DNA from: a virus
Lineage: Duplodnaviria > Caudoviricetes
Length of the DNA: 64,000 bases
Reading direction: 5' to 3' (one strand)
Virus record (IMG/VR): IMGVR_UViG_3300029305_003961
Span: 1 to 64,000 of that record
The notes beneath the pieces are model-generated. The model made no database searches, was not told the origin of the DNA, and was given only the letters and a program-made list of their open reading frames with translations. The position numbers and the translations under genes are program-made. Of this stretch, positions 450-54,107 are shown piece after piece; within the stretch, counting starts at the first letter, position 1, and each line of letters opens with the position of its first letter.

Positions 450-3376
450 TAAAAAGAAATTATATAATGAAGACTCAATAGAATCGCTCAATCCGTTGGA
501 ATTTACTCGTCTAAGGCCACAAGTCTACGCAGGCGATTGCACTTATTCTACTCAACTACTGGTAGAGATTTTATCTAATGCTATTGATGAGTTCAATTTA
601 GGGCACGGAACAGAAATTAATGTTGTTTTAAATAAAGATGTAGTTATCGTAAAAGACCATGGACAAGGTTTTATTGTAAATCATACAAGAGATGATGGAA
701 AAACTATCCTAGAGGCAGCATTCTCTGTTCTCAACACTTCTGGAAAATACCGTGAAGATGGAGCATATGAAGGAACTTCATTAGGTTCTTTTGGTATTGG
801 TTCAAAAATTACAACTTTTCTATCTCACTATTTGGATGTTATAACATTTAGAGATAAACAGTTTGAAAGAATATATTTTAAAGAAGGCGTATTTGATAAA
901 CGAGAAGTCGGAAAATTAAATGATAATACAACTGGCACCATTGTTAAATGGCAACCAAGTGAAGAATTCTTTACCCATACCGAAGTTGAAATCGGTAAAG
1001 TAAAAGAACTTCTAAAGACTATTGTTTGCTTATGCCCTGGTCTAACTATTAAATTGGACAATAATGGAGAAAAAACTGAATACTTTTCTCAAAATGGACT
1101 GCGTGATTATGTAGACCAAAAGGTAAAAGATAAAGAAATCATTGATAATAGATTTTACTCCAAATTCAAAAATGGTAAAGAATCTATTGATTTTATTCTT
1201 ACTTATACCACCTCTTATAATGGAACAATTATTCCCTATGTAAATACTGGTCTTACTGAAAAAGGTTCTCATATTACTCTTATCAAGGCGCTTATTACTA
1301 AAGAGTTTAATAAGTTTTTTAGAGACCAAAAGTGGTTGAAAGAGAAAGATGAGAACTTGACTGGTGAAGATATCGCAGAAGGTCAATATATTGTCTTTAA
1401 TATTACGGCTTCTGGCGTTGCTTATGACGCACAAGTTAAGAGTAATATCACTAAGATTGATATGAAGCCTTTTATTAATGGACTAACAGAAGATTTGCGG
1501 ACTTGGCTAGAAACTAATAAGAAAGAAATTAAAGATATTGCGGATAAGGCTATTAATGCTCGGAAGGCTCGTGAGGCCGCTAAGAAAGCAAAGGATACTG
1601 TTCGTAATAAGGCTGAAAAGAAACAAAAGGCTTTGAAGTTTGATAGTAAACTTGCCGATTGTTATAGTAAACAGCGTAGCAAATGTGAAATCTATATCAC
1701 AGAGGGCGATTCGGCGTCCGGCAACCTAAAGACCGCAAGAAATAACGAATTCCAAGCAGTTATGCCTGTTCGTGGTAAGATTTTAAATACTCAAAAGGCT
1801 ACTCTTGATAAGATTCAGAAAAACGCAGAAATTATGACACTTATTGATGCTTTTGGTCTTACAATTGACCCAAAGAGTATGAAAATTACTTATAACAAAG
1901 AAGATTTACGTTATGGTAAGATTATTATTATGAGCGATGCTGATGTAGACGGCGCGCATATCAAAAATCTTTTCTATACATTCATTTGGAATTTCTGCCC
2001 GCAACTAATTCTTGATGGATATGTTTATGCGGGTGTGCCTCCTCTCTATAAAATTACTATTGGTAAGCAATACAAATATCTGAAAAACGATGAGGCTTTA
2101 GAACAATTCCGTAAAGAAAATGCCGGTCGTAAATATATTGTTAACCGCTTGAAAGGGTAAGAGATAGTCTGGCCCTTAGCTACTTTTCCTCTAATCAGAG
2201 GGGTCACAGAAATGCGGCTAACGAGGTAGTCTTCAAAATTATTTGGACATTTTAGGATAATCTGAAATGTATAAAATTCATATAATATTGAAGATAATCT
2301 CGTGGGAAAAAACTACGAATTATCTTACTGAAACAAAAAAGGTAGGATATAAACAATGATTGGTATCTATAAAATTACAAATAAAATAAATGGTCATTCT
2401 TATATTGGCTTGTCAACAAAGGTTGAAGAACGTTGGAAATACCATTTATCTCCGTATAATCAAGAACGAGAAAGTCATAAAACATTGTATTAGGCTTTTG
2501 CTAAATATGGAGTTGAAAATTTTGATTTTGAAATCCTTGAAGAGTGTAAAATAGAAGAACTTGGAGCAAAAGAAAAATATTATATTGATAAATTTGATAC
2601 ATATCATAATGGCTATAATATGACAGCAGGTGGTGAAGATAATGTGGGTCAAAGCCATCCTGGTCATAAATTAAATTAGCGTGATGTTGAAGATATACGC
2701 ATTAGGTATAATAATCTTGAACGAAGAAAAGAAGTTTATAATCTTTATAAGGACCGAATTGGCGAAAGCGGATTTGGGAAAATATGGAAGGGTGAATCTT
2801 GGTAGCATATTATGCCAGAAGTTTACACTCCTGAAAACAAAGCGTTCCATTTACATAATACTGCTAATAAAGGCAGTTCAAATGGACGCACTCGATTAAC
2901 AGAAGAAGAAGTTCGAGTTATTCGCCTTAGGCGTAAAAATGGAGAACAATTAAAAGATGTTTATGAAGATTATAAAGATAAATTAACAAAGGGTTCATTT
3001 TCAAATATTTGGTGTTATTAGAATTGGAAAGATATCGTAGTTTAAACCTGTATCGACTATCCGCTTTGTCGCGGAGTAGAATTGTTATTGATACACAATT
3101 CGAAAAGGTAGCATCCTATGACGGCAATTAAAGCGTTAGCCCGAGGATAAGAAATAGTCAGTACCATCAGTAATGATGGAGAAATATGTAGGCGAAATGG
3201 ATGTTGAAGAAACAGAAGAAACTCTTACTGACCCAGAGAACAGAATTATCAAACAAATTACAGTTGAGGATATAAAGAAAGCAGACCAGTTATTTGAAGA
3301 TTTAATGGGTGCTGGAATTGCCCCTCGTAAAAAATATATTCAAGACCACAGTGCGGAGGCAACAGGAAATGTATAA
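442..3376 (+). CDS. gyrB: DNA gyrase/type IIA topoisomerase subunit B, spliced: join(442..2158,3189..3376), about 634 aa
   Basis: GHKL motifs (EILSNAIDE, DHGQG) and TOPRIM motifs (EGDSA, PVRGKILN, DADVDG) are present. The conserved R.KGLGEM motif is restored by joining AAA GGG T to TA GGC GAA ATG. Confidence 0.93.
2245..2290 (+). promoter_or_regulatory. Candidate phage-specific promoter motif (copy 1, inside the intron)
   Basis: GGAC-N9-TAA-N16-TTCATATAATATTG. Confidence 0.55.
2356..3045 (+). CDS. Intron-encoded GIY-YIG homing endonuclease, 229 aa, 4 in-frame TAG (2491, 2677, 2803, 3019)
   Basis: Reads MIGIYKITNKINGHSYIG...YGVENFDFEILEEC...GYNMTAGG, followed by two repeated helical DNA-binding-like units. 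It ends in TAA only if TAG is read through. Confidence 0.88.
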
Positions 3377-5949: not shown

Positions 5950-5974
5950 GGAGACTTTATAGTCTCCTTATTTT
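5946..5974 (+). terminator. Intrinsic terminator
   Basis: ATAAGGAGACT-TTAT-AGTCTCCTTAT followed by TTT. Confidence 0.75.
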
Positions 5975-6001
5975 GCTATTCCAAAAAAATTTTGATATAA
6001 T
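5973..6001 (+). promoter_or_regulatory. sigmaA-type promoter
   Basis: TTGCTA-17 nt-TATAAT with extended TG. Confidence 0.75.
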
Positions 6002-6034: not shown

Positions 6035-6080
6035 GGGCGAAACAGATAAAATCATATTATGCTTTCTTGATAATATATAA
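6035..6080 (+). promoter_or_regulatory. Candidate phage-specific promoter motif (copy 2)
   Basis: GGGC-N9-AAA-N16-TTGATAATATATAA. Confidence 0.55.
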
Positions 6081-6096
6081 AGGAGGTAAGCATAAA

Positions 6097-7023
6097 ATGA
6101 TTTTTAGAAAAGATTTAACTAATCAAACATATGGTTTTTGGACTGTCTTAGAGTTTGACCAAGAGCGAAGTGATAAAGAAAAAAGAACTTATTGGAAATG
6201 TTAGTGCGAATGTGGAACTATCGCAAGTGTTTTAGGTTATAATCTAACTTCAGGTACATCGAGGTCTTGTGGTTGTCAATCACATAATTTAAGAAAAAAT
6301 GACCTTATTGGTCAAGTTTTTGGTTATTTAACAGTGATTGAAGATACTAAAAAATTAACCAAAGGACGCAATGTTATTTGGAAGTGCAAATGCAAATGTG
6401 GCAATGAAATTGAAGTTCCTGCGGGATATCTAATAAAAGGGTCTACATCTTCTTGTGGCTGTTATAAAAAAGAAACATTAATGAAAGATTTAACCGGGAA
6501 ACGTTTTGGTAAGTTAGTAGTGCTAGAAGAAACTGACCAACGATTAAGAGATTATATTGTTTGGAAGTGCAAATGTGATTGCGGTAATATCTGTTATATT
6601 ACAAGTTGGTGTTTAAATAACGGCCATACAAATTCATGCGGTTGTTTAAAATCTAAGGGCGAAGCTAAAATAAAAAATATATTAGACTCATATAATATTC
6701 CCTACAATACTGAACATACATTTGCTGATTTAATTTCCATTAATGGAGCTCATTTAAGATTTGATTTTGCTATTTTAAACTCTGATAATACAATTAGTCA
6801 TTTAATTGAATATAATGGATAGCAACATTATGAATGCAGTGAGCAATGGTGGAATACACAAGATAATTTTTCTACTTTACAGTAGAATGATTTATTAAAA
6901 CAATAGTATTGTAAAAAAAATAATATCGATTTAGTTATTATTCCATATGATGAATATGATAATATAACGATTGAAAAATTATTAGGAGATAAATATGAAA
7001 GAAAAAATGCGACAATTGATTGA
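6097..7023 (+). CDS. Free-standing homing-endonuclease-like protein: three Cys-rich repeats plus a C-terminal PD-(D/E)xK/Vsr-like nuclease, 308 aa, 4 TAG (6202, 6820, 6883, 6904)
   Basis: SD AAGGAGG. Three copies of DL.G..FG.L.V...WKC.C.CG...SCGC, then RFDFAI..IEYNG*QHY..ND..K..YC...NI.L..IPY. The ORF overlaps the ligA start. Confidence 0.82.
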
Positions 7024-9824: not shown

Positions 9825-10922
9825 ATGTGGGAACTTATTCTGGGAGCATTTCTTGGAGTTATTATTGGCTTAGGCGCTGGATGGCTTGTATGGCGACGCT
9901 TCCCGCAAGAAAAAATACGAGAAATTAATTATCAAAAACTCCTTGAAGAATAGGACCTCTTTTCTAAACAAAGAGAGCAAGAAGAAGAGGTAATTGCCGA
10001 ATTGGAGCGGCGAAAAGAACAGCGCCAAAAAGACTATGATTTTATGATTGATACCAACAGTAGGATTGTCGATGAATTGTAGCATAAAATCATTGCTTTA
10101 AAACTTGAAAATAGTGAAGAACAAGGCGAAATAAATAAATTAAAAACTCAAAAAATTACAATTCAAGATTCTTTAGTTGAACTAGAAAAATAGGCTTAGC
10201 AATAGGCCGATAAATTTTTCGCTTCGAGACTAGAATTGGCCGAAGAACGATTGGCGCAATCATTAGAGGCAGCCGCCCTCAAATACCAATAGGATGAAGA
10301 AGCATATCGGCGAGAATATGAAAAAACTGTCTTTGAGTGCGCAGAGGCGTTCAAAGAAGCAATAGCAGAATATCAAATTAAAATTTCTGAGGCTTCTGGA
10401 ACCTTAACCGAATTACAAAATAATATTGATATTATGGTAGCAAATGCTAAACGGGAAGAGCAAAAACGACAAGAGAAAAACTTTTATCGTTTAGTTTTGC
10501 CAGAAAGCGATATTGAAGAAATTCGTAAACTTCGTTCTGTAGAACCATATTTACGAGATAAAGAGGCTTTAAATAAAGTTATTTGGAAAGTTTATTATGA
10601 AAAGCCTTATACTGATATGATTGGTAGAATAATTGGTAATAAAATCATTACTGGTATTTATAAAATTACCAATATAGATAATGATATGTGCTATATCGGT
10701 TAGGCTGCTAATGTGGCTGACCGTTGGCGTCAACATATTAAACGTGGAATAGGTGCTGAGCCTCCGACACGCAATAAACTTTATCCGGCTATGCTGGCCT
10801 TCGGGGTAGAAAATTTTACCTTTGAACTATTGGAAGAATGTTAGCGAGATAAACTAGATGAGCGTGAAGACCATTGGCAAGATGTTTATCACGCAAAAGA
10901 TTTCGGTTATAGTATAAAATAA
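9825..10922 (+). CDS. N-terminal transmembrane helix + coiled coil + C-terminal GIY-YIG nuclease domain, 365 aa, 8 TAG
   Basis: Starts MWELILGAFLGVIIGLGAGWLVWRR, has an E/K/Q-rich helical middle, and ends TGIYKITN....CYIG*A.....RW.QH...LY.AM..FGVENFTFELLEEC. It is one frame ending in TAA. Confidence 0.82.
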
Positions 10923-44645: not shown

Positions 44646-47600
44646 TTATTTTTTACGATTAGCAAATTGAGACGCGCGGTTGATAAGAGTATCAAAGGCT
44701 GCTTCAATTTCACCACGATTAGTTGCGTTCGGGAATTCTGCGTGAATTGTAACTTCTTGTTGTAGAGAGTTATTTGATGGCATTACTGCCGGTCTATACA
44801 TCTCGTTTAAAGCGGCCTATTGAGCGGCTGCCCGCAAATCTATTACGTGAGAAATATCTCTTATAATATGAATTGCTGATAAGAAGTTTTCTGTATCATC
44901 GGCATTCAGAACGATTTCCTTTTGGTGAAGCATCGCTAGACGTCCTCCAGAACCCCAAGCGCCTGTATAACCGCCAGTGTCGAACTAATCCCACGTCACT
45001 GGGGTGCGTGGTCCCCCGCCTGTGTAAAGGGCTCGAGCAATTATATTGGGAGTAATTCCTAATTCTTTTGCCATTAATCTGGCAATTTCTTCTTTAATAT
45101 AAAAAGTTCTTCCACCATAATTAAAATAACCATAATCCTAATGGTCGTCAATTATTAAACCATTAATATCACTCTTTCGTACTGTAAGCCCGGTATATGC
45201 ACCTTGTCCAGTTTTACCATCTTCTTTATTAAAAAAAGCTTTCTCTACGTGGAACGTAGTTTCAGGGGGGTTGGGCTCCTCAGGTGGATTGGGCTCTTCG
45301 GGCGGAATTGTGCCCTCAGGCTTTCCTTTATTTGGGTCTCCTTCTTCCGGATTATAATCACCAGAAAGGTCTGGTTTTTCTTCAACGACACGTTTGTATA
45401 AAGCCAAAATATTTGAAATACTTGATGCAACTTCATTGTTTTTATTTATAACTGCCTAAACGGTATTAGAATATTTAGTTGCCCAAGTACTAGCCTCATC
45501 TAAAATTTTATCATAAGCAGTGTCAAACTTTGTTTCCATATCGGTAGCAGACTACGCAGTATCTTTATTATCCTATTGAATGTCTTTAGTTTTTTCATCA
45601 ACAGTTTTCTCAAAATTTTCGACATCTTTACCAGCCAGGTCAAAAGCAGTATTTACATCATTTTTCCAATCAGAATAATGTCCCGCTAAAGCGTCTAGCA
45701 AAATGTCACTATTAGTAACAAAATTACTTAACGCGCCTTCGGCAGTGGTATAACCAGTAGTCTAAGCATAAATAGTTTCATTAAAATTATCGCGCCATTC
45801 AATTTCTTTACTAATTTTATAGCCAGTTTTTTCATTGTAGGCTAGCCAGTCATTCTGATAAATATAGGCGCTATCTTCTATTGCGCCATTCATTTGCTTT
45901 AAGTGATACTCGTACAAACCGGTGTAATAAGCACGCACTTCTTCGACCGCCCTCAAATATTGCTCCTCAGACTCATAAGCATTTTTATCAATAGCAGCAA
46001 TTGCATCAGCCATCTAAGCAGGAATTTCAATAAGGGCCGATTCCATTTCATCAATATAATTTTGAGTTAACTCTTGATAAGCATAAAGTTTATCTTCATA
46101 TCCCTACTGGGCTCCTGCAACAGCATCCTAATCAGCAGTATAAACATAACTCCAATTGCCTTCACTATCACGACGCATACGAACTTGAGACTTAGCATTT
46201 TGCGCCTCTTCAAGAGCAATTTCAGCCAGCCTTAATTCATAACGAGCGCGTAATTCATCCACTTCATACTGGGTCATTTCAGTATTAGATTCTTGAAGAT
46301 TATTAATTTCTTCTTGTAAATCTCTTAACTTAGTTTTGGCTACCACGCTATCAGTATCATCTATGGATTTGGTTAAATCTCTATTTAATTTAGATAACTC
46401 ATAAATTTTCTAATAATCATCCAAATAACGCTCAGAAATTTCTTTCTGCTACTCAAATCGCTGAGATAGTACATCATTGGAGCCAGCAATACCAGCCATT
46501 GCATCTTTAAACGTTTGAACTGTATTATTGACAGCTTCATCAAACGCATCTGCCGCTGCCTACAAGGCATTTTCCCAAGAGGACATAAATGCTTCTTCAG
46601 CAGAAGTTAACTCTTTTTCCAAATTTTTAATTGTTTCATCCCAACGAGTTTTTTCTTCATCGCTTAACTAATCAGCAATGGCATTATATTCTGCTAAAGT
46701 ATCATCATATATAGCTTTATTGGTATCGAATTTAGCCTTCGCCGCTTGTAATTCAGCTTGAGCCCCTTCTACAGAAGCACGAGATAAATTAGCCATAACC
46801 TAATCACTAATACCTAATGCGTCTTGCCCCACTAAATCAATAATATTACGATAATTTTCGAGTAAAGAGTTATTGTGTGAAATAGATTCACTTTGTTCAT
46901 CTAGTTTAGAATTCATTTCCTCGACAGCTGCGACCACTTTTTCGTGAACAGTATCGCCTATATTATTTAACTCTTCATTAGCCTCCCAAAGAGCCTCTTG
47001 ATATTCAGTAAGTGCACTAACTTGTGCATTAGTTAACTGCTTACCATCTAAAACTGACATATTGCCACCAATAAGGGCTTCGATATTCGCATCTGTTAAA
47101 CCGCTTTGGCTAAAAGTCTTATAGATACCGGTTTCATAAGCTTCTATTTTTTTCAGGGCCAGTTCTGCTTGCTAACCTAAAGTAGCAATAGCATCAGCGG
47201 CATCATCAATTGGATCATCAAGATTTTTTAATTGATGTTCTAAAGCATTAAATAGATAACCAATTTTTTCTACCGTATGCTCGACCACATATTGAATTTC
47301 TTCTATTTTAGAATCAGCAATTTCATTATTTTTATCAAGAAGTTTCTACTACTCTTCTTCTAATCCGTTTAGAGATGCTTCATACTATTTTACAGCTTTA
47401 ACAAATTTTTCATATTCTTCTTCATCGCCTGAGATATTATACTTGTCAATTTGAGCCTAATAAAGTTCTTCATAGTTAGTAATGCGTCCGTGTGAATCGC
47501 GTCCCGCGCCATATTCTGCTAAAACGTCCCAGTCTTTATTGACATCCTCCCTCATTGCCTTAACAAGGGCTTCCTAAGTTGCCAATTGCTTCTCCAAAAC

Positions 47601-50600
47601 CACTTGCTCTTGCTTCATATAAGCAAGTTTATCAGGACCCCAGGCACGGTCTTTAGCATCAGTAATGCGCTTATATTCGCGTTCTAAATCAGATAAAGTT
47701 TCTTTTATATAGTGATATCTTTCAATTTCATCATCTATGCGCTTATTGCGCTTTTCAATATCTTTTAAGATATTGTCATTAATAATATCCGTAGCATTAC
47801 CTATATACTATAATTGACCAATAATACCATCTTTATCAAAGTAAGCCTAATAGCCATAAGAAGCCAAAATGGTTTGAGCCTATTCTCCAGTTAATTTTAA
47901 AGAGGTAATCAAACCCTATGCCCACTTTGTTAATTCGCTATTGCTATCAAATGTAGCGCCAATTTTTAAGCTATTTGCATTTGCATAAGTCTATAAAACA
48001 TTTAAAATACCCTAAATTTCACCTGGTAACTATTCAAAATTAGTTATACCAGTAATTTCTAAAACTATTTGTTCTCCAGCCGCGTCTCTAAGTTTCTCAA
48101 TAGCTTCAAGGTCTCCTGTAACCGCAGCACCAATTAAAGCCTAGTATTCTAAAATAAAATTATCCGATAAATATTCATCAGATATATCTAATAGATTGCT
48201 TAAAGCGGTTTTAGTTTCTTCCATTGCCTAAGTGTATTGGGAAGTACCAAATCCACTATTAATACCTTGAGACCAATTACTCCAATTATTTACTAAATCT
48301 TCTAAACCATTATTAATTCGCAGATGTGCTTGAGCAACCTGTAGAGCATAAACCTTATTGTTTTTTAAATCTTCACTAACGGTTTCAACGGCTCCAGCCA
48401 TTTCATATAAAGCTTCAGCGTGAGTTTCTACCTATTCACTATCAATTCCAAGTGCTTTATTTTCTGTTTCTAACTATTCAATAAATTTAGCTTCTGCTTC
48501 TGCTGCTTCTTGCATTTTGGTCTCATACTTATCTATTGACTAGCGTTTTTCATTGGCCTCATTATAGGCTTTAACAGCTTTGTCGGTTTTAATTTGAATA
48601 TCACTATCTTCGAAATTTGGAATATAAACATCTTTTATCCATTTATAAAATTTTGAACTATCCTACTCATCAAAAGTGCCGACTTTTTTAGCCTATGCAA
48701 TTAAAGTATCAACAAAATCCTTGGGCAATCCTATGCGCTCAGGATCGGTTAACCACTCTCGTATATCCTCTTCTGTCTCGGCTACACCAGTTATAGAAGA
48801 AGAATTAGGCAAAGTTTTATCTCTAAAAAACTAATATTGCTCTGACTAGAGAATATCTCGTTTAGCTTCTAGCTCTTCTTTTTCTACTTGTAACTTATAA
48901 ACTTCTGCTTCGGTTGGAACATTTTCCAATTGTGCCTAGGCTTTTGCATATTCTTGTTCAGCAATCTGTAATCCCTATACCACTTCATAAGTGGATTGAG
49001 TTTGAGAGCTACTGCGACTCTATTCAATAAGTTCTAAAACTTCTCTATCAGATTTTTTAAGCCATTCGGTTTTTTCTTCTATCGTGAGGTCTTCTTTATT
49101 TTTACCCAAGAAAGTAGCCACTTGAGCCAAATAAGCCTCACGACCCTATCCTTCTCCAGTGCCCCATCGATTATTGCTTGTTATAAATTTTGTAAATTTA
49201 TCATTGGCGGTAATATTTAAACCAATCTATTGACTTTCCCACCACTCTTTACCAATCTCAAAAGCATCTTTAAATTCATTTAAAGTCTAATCTTTATCTA
49301 AATCTAATTTCCATAATAAAGTCTAATCATCCTCAGAAAGAGAATTATACCATTGCTCAAAACCATTAGGCATAGATTTAAGCATTTCCGTAATATAATT
49401 CTCAATTGCAACTCTTAAATTTTCATTTGAAATAGTAGAAGTATCAAGCCTTAATAATGTACCTAAATTATCTACATTAAAATTATCTAGTGTGCCAGTA
49501 TCTTCATTATAAGCGGATAAAATACTATTAATAAGAGTTTGAACCGCTCCACCAGCTTTTAAATTTTCAACAGCCGCTTTAGTTTCCGATACTAATAAAT
49601 CAATATAATTTTCTTGATCCTATAAAGTTTTCCATTCACCGTATATTTTAGCTATCTCATTTTGATGATATTTATCTTTTTCACCCTGATTAACCCAGTT
49701 ATCATTTTCATCTTTCTTTTGAAGAGTCCAACCTACTCCGCCAAGGTTTGTAAAGCGATATTGCTCTGGGTCATATCCCATTGCCTTTATGGCTTCAGTG
49801 GCCCATTCACTTTCATCGCCCCATCCGGATAAACCTGAAAGAAATTCTTCTGCATATTTAGCATTACTTGCTTCAATTTCCTCTTTAGAATAAGCTCTTT
49901 CAGCGACATATGAGCTATTTACGTCATTAAGCTTATCTGAATACATAGCAATAAAAGCATTTTTCCAATCAGTTTTTTCTTGTAAGTTTTCTTTATTTAT
50001 TTGTTTTGTTAATTCTTTAAGAGCTTCGCTATTTTCAACTAAAGAATTAATAAGTTTTATATCTTTAATCCCTAAATCATCTAAGGATTTTCGTAATTCA
50101 GTTTCAGACGCAAAAACAGCATAATTGCTTTCTTCGGCCTTGGCAGCTAAGTCTTCTAACAGCTATTTTTCCGCTTCAGTATCTTGGTCTAATAGAGCTC
50201 CTGTAATTCCACCGGCTGCAAGACCAGCAGCAGCAGCACCTGCAATAATAGGTAAAGAGGCGCCTGCGGTCATTATGGTTAGAACAGTAGCGGCTAAAGC
50301 TGCAGTGGCCGCTCCACCAAGTCCTAAAGCTCCAGCGGTTCCAGCACCTTCTGCAGAACTTTGCATAGATTTTTGTGCAAAACCGACTTTATCAGCCTCT
50401 AATCGCGCCTAATCAGCCTAGCTAGAACTTAAAATTTTAGCACTTTGCGCATTTAGTAGTTTTTTCTATTCTAAACTCTATGCACGCTCTAGCTCTGCCT
50501 CTGAAATATTAATTAAGCCATTTTCATCTATTGTATAACTTAATTCATCCTATTTTTCCAAAAGTGCCATGGCGGATTCATTAGCCTCTTGGATTGCATC

Positions 50601-53600
50601 ATTATATTCAAGAGTACCTTTTGTTAATTCCTTTAGGCCCTCTCTTGCGGATTCATAGTTAGAAACAGTATTATTAAGTTCTTCATAACTAGCTTTGGCT
50701 TCGTCAAAACCGGCACTAACTGCTTTTGCCAGAGCTTTGGCTTGTTCAGCAGCTTTTTCTTCTTTTTTACGGTTAGCATCTACAGCAGTTGCCATAATAG
50801 CAATTCCTGCAACAACAATAGCTATAGCGGCTGCTATACCACCCATAGTCATTAATAATTCTTTACCGCTGGTAGATAAGGCTGGTATATTTGATTTTCC
50901 AGCTTTTCCCTGTACTCCATTTACCACAGTATCTTGAACCTAAGCAGCAGTTTCCTTTTTTTGTTCTTTTTTCATGGTATTGGATGCGGCTGCAGTCTTA
51001 AGTTTTTGCTTTTCTAAACGTTTTTCAGAAGCTTCATTAAGCATATTAATCATAGAGTCTTTTAATTTGGCTTGACGAAGTTCATTAAATGCACTAACAG
51101 CCATAGGAAGCACCATGCCCAACGAGGTACTAATACTTAAAAGTTTATCTCCCCAAGACATGTCCTCATTATTTAAGACATCTAGCGCGCCCTTTAAAGT
51201 ACTTAATACCATAGTTATTGTCATCGTCATATTGGCAACAAACTATAACCTTTGGCCAAATTCCATGGCATAAAAACTACTATCTCGTAAAATAGGACTT
51301 AGCCCTTCTAAAGCCTAAGATTCAGCCATAATATGCTTCTAAGTTTCTCCAGCTCCAACTCCTGCTTGTCGCTATCCTTGAATAAATTCATCAGTAGCAC
51401 CATTGACTTTTGCCTATTGAACTGCATTTTGTTGTAATACATCGGTCTATGATTCTAACGCATTATTTTTTTGTCTTACATTTTCTAAAGCCTAATTTGC
51501 TTTATCTTTAGCAACATCAACATCCTATCCTGATTGTTCAGCTTTTTCTAAATCTAATAAAGCCTATTTGGCTTCTTTTACAGCATTTGCATACTCCTTA
51601 TATTCTTCTCCTAAGTCTTTACCAACTGTATTTTGTAACTAATCAGTTGTACCTTCTGCAGTGGCACCCAATCCCTTAAGGCGAGATTCTAATTCAGTAA
51701 GACTCTTCATCTGCTAAGTAGTATTACCCACTCCACCATTAGCAATAGATGCAAAAGCGCTTTCATTTGAAATTGAAATGGCACTATTTATTTCTGCGGC
51801 CGCAGATGTCTGTTTTATCTAAGTAGCAGATTTATTAAATTCCTACTATGAAGTTTGAATTGCATTAACATCAGATGGAGTTATATTTCTAAGGGCTTTT
51901 GTAGCATTTGCTTTTTGAACACCCGCCTAAGTTCTTAAGCTTTTAATTTCATCGTCTGTGCCACCCTTACCCTCCAATTCCGCTATCTAATTTAGTGTGG
52001 CTTTTAATTTTTCAAGATTCTATAAATACTTCTATACTTGAGTACTTGAATCTCCAAACATAGATGTTAACTCTTCTTCTGTGGAATTAGCACTAATTCC
52101 TAATTCTTTAAATTTCTATTCAACCTATTGTACATCGCTAACAGTCTTAAGGTTTTTAGTCTCAGAAGGAGCTATCTATTTAACCTAATTTATATTTTGA
52201 TTTATATTTTGAGCCTATCTAATTTGACTATTAAATTCTAGATTTTTAGCATATTTTGCCTTATTAGCATCGGTATCTAATTGCATATTTCTAGTAAATT
52301 CTTCTGAGCTATAATATCTTTCATCACTTTTTTCTCTTTCACTCATCTAAACTTCAAAAGCAGCTTTTTGAGTTTCAGTTAAATTTTGTGATTTTTCATT
52401 AAATTCCATTAAAGTTTTTGCTCGGTTTTTAGCACTTTCATTTTGGGCTCCTTCTAAACCATATGAACTAGAATTAAACATATTATTTGCAGCCCATTCT
52501 TTCTACTCTGCCATTTTTTGTCTACCACTAGAAGTTAATGACATAACATTGTTTGCTATAGCAGTAGCACCCGCTGCAATCTATGGAGAAAAAGTGCGTA
52601 ATAAAGCAGTACCAACCAAAGCTAATACGCCTGGTAAACCTCCTAGACCTTCAATCATTTTATCTAAAAGATTTAAAAATCCGGTAAAAGTATCTAATAT
52701 ATCAATAAAAAATTCATCATCTAGTAATTTGCTATAAATCGCTTCCAAAGCCGCTGTCACTCGGTCTGCCGCCGCTTCCCAAGATTCAGCATAAATATCC
52801 TACTATTCTTGTAGCGTTCCAGAAGAGGCATTCGCAGTATTTAAATTTTCCTAGAAATAAGACCAGTTATCCATCAAAGCAATCAATTGAGAGTATTGGC
52901 GTACGCCGGCAACAGTTTGCGCTACAGATACCTACTATGCCTTAGATAGAGTATCCCACTTTTTGCCCATTTCATCCAAAATATCATTCATATCTTTCAG
53001 ATTACCATTAGCATCTAAAATATTAACCCCAATAGTAGCAAGACCTTCTGAGTACTAACCTAAAGTCACTCCATCTTCTAAAGTATTTCCAAGCTCCAAA
53101 TCTTGAATACGGGCAAATAAGGTTTTAAAGGCGGTACCAACTACATCCGCACTCTAACGAGTTGTTGCGGTAACAGTTGCTAGTGCCGCAGTGGCATATT
53201 CATAAGACAGACCTACTGTATTTGCAATGGCAGCAAATTTTTCTAGACCCTCAGAAATCTCATCTGAACTAGAGGCTGTCGCTGCACCCAAAGCAGTTAA
53301 TACATCGGCATAATACTCAAGACTTTTAGTTCCATCATAGAAGTTGTTCCAAACTGCTGTTAATTGGTCAGAAACAGTCTCAACAGATTGTCCAGTAATA
53401 TTGGCTAATTTAATTGTTGTTTCTGCGCGCTCCTATGCCTCTTTCATATTTAAACCCTGTTGGAAATAAATCAAAGAAGCATCGGTCATAGCGGTTGTTG
53501 TTGTACTTAATGCTTTAGCGGCTCTATTTGCCTCATTAGCAAACTCTTTCATTTCTTCAGCACCATAATTGGTAACAATACGAATATTATTTAAAGAGGT

Positions 53601-54107
53601 ATTTAATTCTTTAGTATAATCTACTGCTTCACTTATGCCCTAAACAAATCCCATGATAACACTAGAAGATAGTTGATATCTTAAAGTGTTCATAAAAGTG
53701 GCACCTAAGCGCTATATTCCCTTACTCAAGTTTAGTACTGGCGCTTCGGCAGTGGCAATTGAATAAGCCAACTTATTAAAAGCCTACTGTCCCTACGGAC
53801 CAATGGCTGTGAGTTGGGCTTTATATTTTTCAAGTGTCATTCCACTACTTTTTAATTCCTAATTAAATTTTACTAAATTTAATTTTCCTGTGTCTGCGTT
53901 GAAAGCATTTTGTAACTGAATGCGTAATTGTGCCGCAGCCTAAGAGGCTTTATTCAAATCGGCGGCGTACTAAGTGCCTACGGACGAATGCATAGAAGTG
54001 CTATTAATCTATGCCAAAGAACCTTGTAATTCAGACATAGCTCTTTTAGCAGCACTTACATCAGCACTAAATTTAAGATTTACACCTATAGTTTGATTAC
54101 TTGCCAT
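44646..54107 (-). CDS. Tail tape measure protein, about 3153 aa, dozens of TAG
   Basis: Eight tracked ORF fragments share the frame from ATG 54107 (SD GAAAGGAG) to TAA 44646. Shows an N-terminal TMP domain (LNTSLNNIRIVT, LIYFQQG, VGTAFKTLFAR), central hydrophobic helices and C-terminal FDTGGYTG.W...G.LAMLHQKE.VLN. Not every codon was checked for TAA or TGA. Confidence 0.88.

Follow-up and report, generated by a model that had tools for sequence, protein, structure and literature searches.

The analysed region comprises positions 1-64,000 of the virus record IMGVR_UViG_3300029305_003961; this whole stretch of 64,000 nucleotides (nt) is referred to as the window, and its coordinates are used throughout. 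The + strand of the window starts with a replication block, and close to its beginning the gyrB gene is interrupted by an insert with the features of a group I intron, which itself encodes a GIY-YIG homing endonuclease containing in-frame TAG codons. The genes at the locus are arranged as follows.

442-2158, + strand: gyrB exon 1, 572 codons and the first base of a Leu codon, 0 TAG; Pfam domains DNA_gyraseB, Toprim and GyrB_hook
2159-3188, + strand: group I intron, 1030 nt
2356-3045, + strand: GIY-YIG homing endonuclease gene within the intron (loop L6), 229 amino acids (aa) with TAG read as Gln, TAA stop
3189-3376, + strand: gyrB exon 2, the last 62 codons (LGEM...); gyrA starts at 3372

The 3' end of exon 1 reads AAA GGG T (2158) and is directly followed by an in-frame TAA (2158-2160), while exon 2 begins at 3189 with TA GGC GAA ATG and its frame closes at 3376, just past the gyrA start. 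The insertion point lies between bases 1 and 2 of the Leu codon in the motif KG/LGEM (the slash marks the site), and the ligated exons would read AAAGGGT-TAGGCGAAATGG. Exon 2 alone matched the Pfam domain DNA_gyraseB_C over positions 13-63 with 51.3 bits, whereas a 76-aa peptide spanning the junction matched positions 2-63 of 63 with 68.9 bits. Removal of 2159-3188 therefore rebuilds one domain together with the KGLGEM motif, and the exact junctions given in the initial annotation were borne out. Furthermore, KG LGE(M/Q) is unbroken in 13 of 15 related IMG/VR gyrB genes (59-88% identical), the alignments of the other two ending earlier, at a different insert right after the DADV(DG) TOPRIM motif. 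The closest cultured GyrB is less than 36% identical. That gyrB is truly split into a 572-aa and a 67-aa product (open reading frame, ORF, 3173-3376) with the insert left unspliced is very improbable: exon 1 does run into the in-frame TAA, an ATG-started ORF spans exon 2, and the gene of the Lactococcus phage LW81 is annotated as two topoisomerase coding sequences (CDS), but a single Pfam domain is restored exactly at the junction, related gyrB alleles are uninterrupted, the ATG at 3173 has no Shine-Dalgarno sequence and lies inside helix P9 of the ribozyme, and about 60 introns share a conserved, covarying ribozyme core.

The elements of the ribozyme were assigned as listed.

2153-2158/2172-2177, + strand: P1, exon AAGGGU with the internal guide GCCCUU, U2158-G2172 wobble
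2167-2171 with 3189-3193, + strand: P10, guide GUCUG with UAGGC of exon 2
2179-2184, + strand: P3 5' strand GCUACU, partner 3107-3112
2186-2192/2197-2203 and about 2204-2217, + strand: peripheral hairpins A and B between P3 and J3/4, both with compensatory changes in RNAalifold
2218-2221, + strand: J3/4 CUAA, after hairpin B
2221-2225/2299-2303 and 2230-2236/2288-2294, + strand: P4 and P5, with J4/5 GUAG and J5/4 UAAU
roughly 2237-2287, + strand: P5 extension, about 50 nt, including the hairpin 2248-2255/2262-2269
2304-2306 with 3047-3049, + strand: P6, GGG with CCU
3055-3059 with 3155-3159, + strand: P7, GACUA with UAGUC
3060-3064/3071-3075 and 3080-3085/3095-3100, + strand: P7.1 and P7.2, from RNAalifold of 3' halves
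3107-3112, 3113-3117/3144-3148 and 3149-3154, + strand: P3', P8 and J8/7
3164-3169/3174-3179 and 3188, + strand: P9 with a GUAA loop, and the terminal G

To compare this structure among relatives, we screened IMG/VR with the 3' core pattern GACTATCC-N10-GGAGTAG, which yielded at least 117 stretches, and assembled a set of about 60 distinct introns from IMG/VR and from cultured Lactococcus and Enterococcus phages. These share one layout, namely CCUGUAUC-GACUA, a hairpin, GGAGUAG, a hairpin with a UAUUGAUAC loop and UCGAAAN, followed by six variable bases, a hairpin, AAGANAUAGUCAG and a GNRA hairpin. RNAalifold analysis of 48 3' halves gave 23 pairs in P7, P7.1, P7.2 and P9, with compensatory double changes in 15 of them, many of these in P7.1 and P7.2, both of which lie between P7 and P3'. 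P7 itself is invariant in the family, so covariation is silent on it either way. Among 26 5' halves, the two hairpins, P4 and the base of P5 comprise 21 pairs, 9 of which are compensatory; the fourth pair of P4 is A-U in 15 and G-C in 11, and a P5 pair is C-G in 14 and U-A in 12. Since MAFFT mis-registers P3' in the full-length alignment, pairs between the two halves were tallied by script: in 15 introns the cognate P3 strands formed 5.67 of 6 pairs against 3.56 of 6 for non-cognate strands, and none of 20000 permutations was as good. P6 occurs as GGG/CCU, GGC/GCU and GGU/ACU across the family, and the P1 pair 2154/2176 changes from A-U to G-C in two relatives, L047 and L111, which have AAG as the Lys codon. 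P8 is seen in each individual sequence but cannot be aligned across the family. The 3'-terminal intron base is G in all 12 aligned introns from the same site, and a relative without an ORF (L092, 287 nt) folds with a z-score of -4.5 against shuffles. Thus the comparative data confirmed 2159-3188 as a genuine group I intron, for which self-splicing is predicted, with P1, P3, P4, P5, P6, P7.1, P7.2 and P9 supported by compensatory changes; the U-G wobble in P1, the P10 pairing (GUCUG with UAGGC) and the visible P7 that had been noted initially were all located at exact coordinates. GGUAGU (2226-2231) and GCUA (2217-2220) were rejected as alternative P3 partners, as covariation does not back them, and an 8-bp complement of GGCUAACG with CGUUAGCC in L8 was likewise rejected, not being conserved in the relatives L026 and L125.

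The core resembles those of known phage introns. In the T4 td intron, the order P7, P7.1, P7.2, P3', P8 and the sequences of J8/7 and P7 appear to be like those in the window, and the 3' core of the Twort intron presumably runs nearly parallel (GACUAUNC-hairpin-GNAGUAG-hairpin-CGAAAU-P3'-P8-AUAGUC). Of the criteria for the IA2 (td/Twort) type, P7.1 and P7.2 are present and the P2 hairpin is absent. Unlike td, which resides in another host gene, the intron of the window has no P2 before P3 and instead two hairpins after it; Twort and other IA2-type introns are likewise hosted by Firmicutes phages, but their peripheral hairpins are placed differently.

The endonuclease ORF starts about 50 nt past the 5' strand of P6 and its TAA stands one base ahead of P6', so the gene fills loop L6. 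As had been described initially, it is a GIY-YIG ORF with four in-frame TAG codons (2491-2493, 2677-2679, 2803-2805 and 3019-3021). It matched Pfam PF01541 (GIY-YIG, E=8.7e-11), phrog_7168 of PHROG ('homing endonuclease', 5.9e-40) and the catalytic domain of I-TevI (PDB 1MK0, E=6.7e-8), and in the alignment to the latter GIY, YIG, RW, a Glu at the position of E75 of I-TevI and GYN are all kept. The gene thus appears to encode an intact I-TevI-like GIY-YIG enzyme with predicted cleavage activity, and it shares with T4 td/I-TevI both the placement in the P6 loop and a homologous catalytic domain.

With TAG read as Gln, coverage of the window by long frames rises from 0.61 under table 11 to 0.93. 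The tape measure gene (44646-54107, - strand), which encodes 3153 aa, contains 94 TAG. Per 1000 codons, TAG occurs 17.5 times in the endonuclease gene, 1.6 times in non-nuclease genes of the same block and 15.2 times in the structural block, and it is absent from gyrB and gyrA; the proposal that the nuclease is written in the TAG=Gln code of the phage within a TAG-free early gene was therefore upheld. In its giant tape measure gene and its amber recoding, the phage of the window is reminiscent of the phAss-1 group, in which tape measure genes encode 3149-3209 aa (PMC10607447, a paper that mentions neither introns nor gyrase), and the near-equal length suggests that it belongs in or near that group. 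Ten full-length orthologues of the endonuclease are all exactly 229 codons long with a TAA stop, no frameshift and no internal TAA or TGA. An orthologue in a TGA-recoded phage (L125:2974-3663, - strand) sits at the same gyrB site and its protein is 67% identical; all six of its Trp codons are TGA, and reading TGA as Trp raises the coding density of its locus from 0.76 to 0.91. Another relative, L085, carries a full-length orthologue without any recoded codon. The endonuclease therefore follows the code of its resident phage. Two further nuclease ORFs were observed in the otherwise TAG-poor early block: a second GIY-YIG nuclease (9825-10922, + strand, 365 aa) with a C-terminal domain (Pfam 1.4e-9) and 8 in-frame TAG, and a DUF2726-like nuclease (6067-7023, + strand, 318 aa) with 4 TAG and a weak Pfam match (5.9e-4), which overlaps the start of the NAD-ligase gene and is preceded by a sigma-70-type promoter (TTGCTA-17-TATAAT, 5973-6001).

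Directly upstream of the endonuclease gene, a hairpin covers the ribosome-binding site.

2321-2329 with 2341-2349, + strand: UAUCUUACU with GGUAGGAUA, -7.7 kcal/mol, z -2.4

Its 3' strand is the Shine-Dalgarno sequence of the endonuclease. Among 11 family members, nine have as their minimum free energy structure a hairpin that hides the Shine-Dalgarno sequence, the hairpin sequence differing from member to member, and one further member hides the AUG. An inverted repeat AAGAUAAU-c-UCGU / ACGA-AUUAUCUU (2291-2303 / 2315-2326) also forms part of the endonuclease cassette, and it competes both with P5', J5/4 and P4' of the ribozyme and with the ribosome-binding-site hairpin. When isolated RNAs were folded, the repeat pairing won in the window and in L039, but not in L026, L085 and L125. 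A model of an RNA switch, in which 2315-2326 would switch between two states, one paired with 2291-2303 and the other hiding the ribosome-binding site, was not adopted because it fails in these three relatives.

The initial annotation had also assigned to the intron its own copy of a candidate late promoter, and a match to the pattern is indeed present.

2245-2285, + strand: 'late promoter' pattern match inside the P5 extension, GGAC (2245-2248), 28 nt, TTCATATAA; TATAAT at 2281-2286

The composite motif, GGNC-N28-TT(G)AWAWWW, was drawn from the same sites on which it was counted and gave 7 matches against 1.5 expected. A TTTTGAWAATA core is common to the four best sites; the intron copy lacks it and is the weakest of the seven, and in a sigma-70 scan of this copy no TTGACA-type -35 box and no TG extension were found. 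The clear promoters of the genome are of the form TTGACA-N17-TGATATAAT and head the early block and, near 70.85 kb, the structural operon; when the sequences preceding recoded operons were searched de novo for a late promoter of another kind, only this sigma-70 type emerged. Since the same promoter stands at both blocks, a separate late class is not established. Beyond the window, upstream regions in the genome stretch 72.5-90 kb (L136, L137) look far more GC-rich than the remainder, which is AT-rich, and their promoter-like context differs; this stretch may stem from chimeric assembly or from a module of foreign origin.

The matched sequence is at the same time part of an RNA structure. The GGAC belongs to the conserved hairpin 2248-2255/2262-2269, and the promoter box forms the 3' strand of a covarying helix of the P5 extension, where it is loosely conserved (AAAATATAAAT in L026, TAAATATTAG in L039). 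The extension, composed of a conserved GGACAUUUYAGG...CUGAAAUG hairpin and an AT-rich box, is present in 9 of 9 same-site introns with a full-length endonuclease ORF and absent in the three without an ORF (L092, L116:5485-5821 on the - strand, and L138); L092 is nearly identical to L073 apart from the P5 extension and the ORF. It also holds GAAATGNAT, which is like GAAATGGAT of the 3' exon, a resemblance that is not significant alone, about 0.7 chance matches being expected by a rough estimate.

An internal promoter, either with the box at 2277-2286 or with AATTAT (2318-2323) just 5' of the hairpin strand, from which the endonuclease would be transcribed separately and late, is possible but doubtful, and it would add to the explanation given below rather than replace it. 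The T4 I-TevI gene is expressed from promoters inside its intron, among them a proven late promoter with an operator. The excess of motif matches speaks for such a promoter, as do the perfect TATAAT, the occurrence of ATATAATATT at four intergenic promoter-like sites, the co-occurrence of the P5 extension with the full-length ORF and, in the Enterococcus phage VRE9_3, a good TTGATT-17-TATAGT between the strands of the start-codon hairpin. The post hoc definition of the motif, the failure of the intron copy in the core and in the sigma-70 scan, the position of the box within a covarying helix whose sequence differs in L026 and L039, and the lack of an established late class speak against it; moreover, of five same-site relatives tested, three keep the Shine-Dalgarno hairpin in an RNA that starts near 2293. 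Of the proposed late-promoter copy, the pattern match thus stood, as the weakest of seven to a post hoc motif and inside a conserved RNA structure, and the conserved Shine-Dalgarno hairpin appears to be the better-supported candidate for a second brake on the nuclease.

The host gene had initially been considered unusual for a phage group I intron; this view did not hold. The KG/LGE site is occupied in 13 other verified IMG/VR introns, and in a set of 12 same-site IMG/VR introns two lack an ORF, namely L092 and a second copy in L116. In cultured Lactococcus 949-group phages (LW81, AM1-AM12, P1048) the same site holds an unannotated intron of about 304 nt that likewise lacks an ORF; in LW81 (L138, NC_049855.1 56554-58842) gyrB is annotated as two 'topoisomerase' CDS about 290 nt apart, and a paper on the related phage PhiL47 lists gyrase ORFs and mentions introns only in RNR genes. 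The Lactococcus intron has the same core, with a covarying P3 (CCACCU/GGGUGG), but differs from that of the window in having neither an endonuclease gene nor the P5 extension, and in residing in phages that show no sign of recoding. Family introns also occur at other gyrB sites, after DADVDG and at GIG/SK (L011, L012, L014/L059, L021, L074), and in gyrA at the ...ACNWLPHNL motif (L038, L051, L052, L133, L134), and some gyrB genes of related phages contain two introns. Introns of this family are thus often found in gyrB.

In addition, comparison of introns with their flanking exons bears on mobility. The introns of L110 and L026 are 93% identical and their flanking exons 73-74%; when L111 is included with L026, the introns are 93-94% and the gyrB exons 71-74% identical to those of L110. 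Intron identity far above that of the exons points to lateral transfer between divergent phages, and for the copy in the window, with 77-80% identity in the intron and 71-77% in the exons, nothing indicates a recent transfer. The suggestion that the element could home only among recoded phages was not sustained, since orthologues include one in a TGA=Trp phage and one, that of L085, free of recoded codons, and ORF-less copies reside in Lactococcus phages. Any recipient, recoded or not, should be open to cleavage because the donor would supply the suppressor in coinfection. The nuclease would be dead after transfer into a standard-code phage, which is at least compatible with the ORF-less Lactococcus copies.

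These data very probably describe a mobile group I intron with a td/Twort-like core in the gyrB gene of an uncultured gut siphovirus that reads TAG as Gln, combining early splicing with a delayed nuclease. The gyrB pre-mRNA would be made early and splice itself, and full-length GyrB would be translated in the host code. Translation of the endonuclease would halt at the first TAG, codon 46, inside the catalytic domain, until amber decoding sets in, and ribosome loading on its gene would be poor, its binding site being occluded. Ribosomes would thus be kept off the folding ribozyme, and DNA cleavage and homing would be postponed to the replication or late phase.

Early splicing with a delayed nuclease, as first proposed for this locus, remains the natural reading, although the idea is not new and is already in print. 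The work on Agate phages that preceded ours reportedly appeared in Nat Microbiol in 2022. In its preprint version, Borges et al. (bioRxiv 10.1101/2021.08.26.457843) described, for an early gene of these phages, a group I intron whose endonuclease is TGA-recoded, and proposed the delay. Both systems have an intron in an early standard-code gene, an endonuclease that prefers the reassigned stop codon and the same inference of early splicing and late nuclease production, but TGA is read as Trp there and TAG as Gln in the window; with TGA for all its Trp codons at the same gyrB site, L125 looks like the Agate kind. The preprint names no host gene or site and does not include the RNA structure, a ribosome-binding-site hairpin or a comparison of orthologues across codes. 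For I-TevI of T4, delayed translation together with a ribosome-binding site hidden in a hairpin was shown experimentally (Gibb and Edgell 2010, 'Better late than early', as cited in PMC3984707), and the window resembles T4 td/I-TevI in these two respects as well. It differs in that the delay would come partly from amber codons, and in that the internal promoter is only a candidate.

Several observations weigh against this reading and concern, on the one hand, the ribozyme. At the gathering threshold, a scan of the whole window with the Rfam group I model RF00028 gave no match, and neither did a search over the genome of the window; a permissive scan (E up to 10) gave 17.1 bits (E=0.13) at 2997-3180, against a cut-off of 50, in an alignment that puts AAGAAAUAGUC on the J8/7-P7 consensus. 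The model also detected nothing in the ORF-less L092 and in 20 further family loci, and because it misses every member of the family, with or without an ORF, its low score says little and the scan is a weak test of the assignment. Furthermore, no P2 lies between P1 and P3, the guide and P3 being one nucleotide apart, and two hairpins stand between P3 and J3/4 in every member with a recovered 5' half, hairpin B being reduced in the intron of the window. The family core thus runs P1, one nucleotide, the 5' strand of P3, hairpin A, hairpin B, CUAA and P4 (2178-2221 in the window). We know of no earlier description of such a pair of hairpins at this position. Since RF00028 detects none of the about 60 members, the topology may define a structural subclass not described before, or Rfam may simply have a gap here.

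On the other hand, they concern the code. In the columns where the endonuclease orthologues have TAG, Gln is found at four positions (19, 46, 86 and 222), but Lys or Glu at five others, all of these Gln, Lys and Glu codons being one base from TAG. A search with ARAGORN for a suppressor tRNA (CUA) over 96.6 kb of a record rated 59% complete found only tRNA-Lys; in the survey of Borges et al. (bioRxiv 10.1101/2021.08.26.457843) a suppressor tRNA was detected in only 40% of such phages. The enrichment in TAG could also reflect drift towards the codon usage of the resident phage rather than selection for gating. Neutral drift of this kind, in which only the hairpin, if anything, would set the timing, is a less probable yet serious account: the TAG columns vary by lineage and in many cases contain Lys or Glu, the full-length orthologue of L085 is free of recoded codons, and a few TAG also occur in several non-late genes (RecJ 3, NrdD 1, RuvC 4). 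Against drift, TAG makes up 4 of 7 (57%) Gln-type codons in the endonuclease gene and none in the gyrB and gyrA genes around it, TAG is likewise abundant in the other two nuclease genes of the early block (12.6 and 21.9 per 1000 codons), eight of ten orthologues have TAG and two have CAA at codon 222, and L125 uses TGA for every Trp. In addition, significant preferential recoding of the intron endonuclease family has been reported (10.1101/2021.08.26.457843). That the endonuclease gene is a decaying pseudogene with TAGs as true stops is hardly credible: table 11 gives four in-frame stops and the suppressor tRNA was not found, but the 229-codon frame with its TAA stop is kept without frameshift in ten orthologues, the catalytic motifs are intact, and the structural block as a whole, with its 3153-aa tape measure protein, requires TAG as a sense codon.

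A more far-reaching reading is unlikely in our judgement. It would hold that the introns form a large undescribed group I subclass, without P2, with two hairpins between P3 and J3/4 and invisible to Rfam, and that in the endonuclease-bearing gyrB lineage the nuclease travels under three stacked controls. These would be a stop-codon gate retuned to the code of the resident phage (TAG, TGA or none), a hidden ribosome-binding site, and the P5 extension gained and lost with the nuclease gene; this extension would serve as internal promoter and operator in the manner of I-TevI, and its GAAATGNAT would resemble the 3' exon half of the homing site.

The principle of a stop-codon-gated intron nuclease is already published (Borges et al.), and the additions made here are small: a comparison of orthologues across codes, a ribosome-binding-site hairpin and an unusual core topology undetected by Rfam. 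For annotation, the locus means that the last 62 gyrB codons are invisible to gene callers, that the Rfam group I model overlooks an entire intron family and that cultured Lactococcus phages carry the same intron without annotation. Moreover, the intron offers a sequence-level example of how a selfish element may spare an essential early gene, as the ribozyme would leave the gyrase message and the nuclease would stay unreadable until the code switch. With TAG-recoded, TGA-recoded, unrecoded and endonuclease-less copies at one gyrB site, the family provides a natural series in which selection for stop-codon gating may be weighed against drift.

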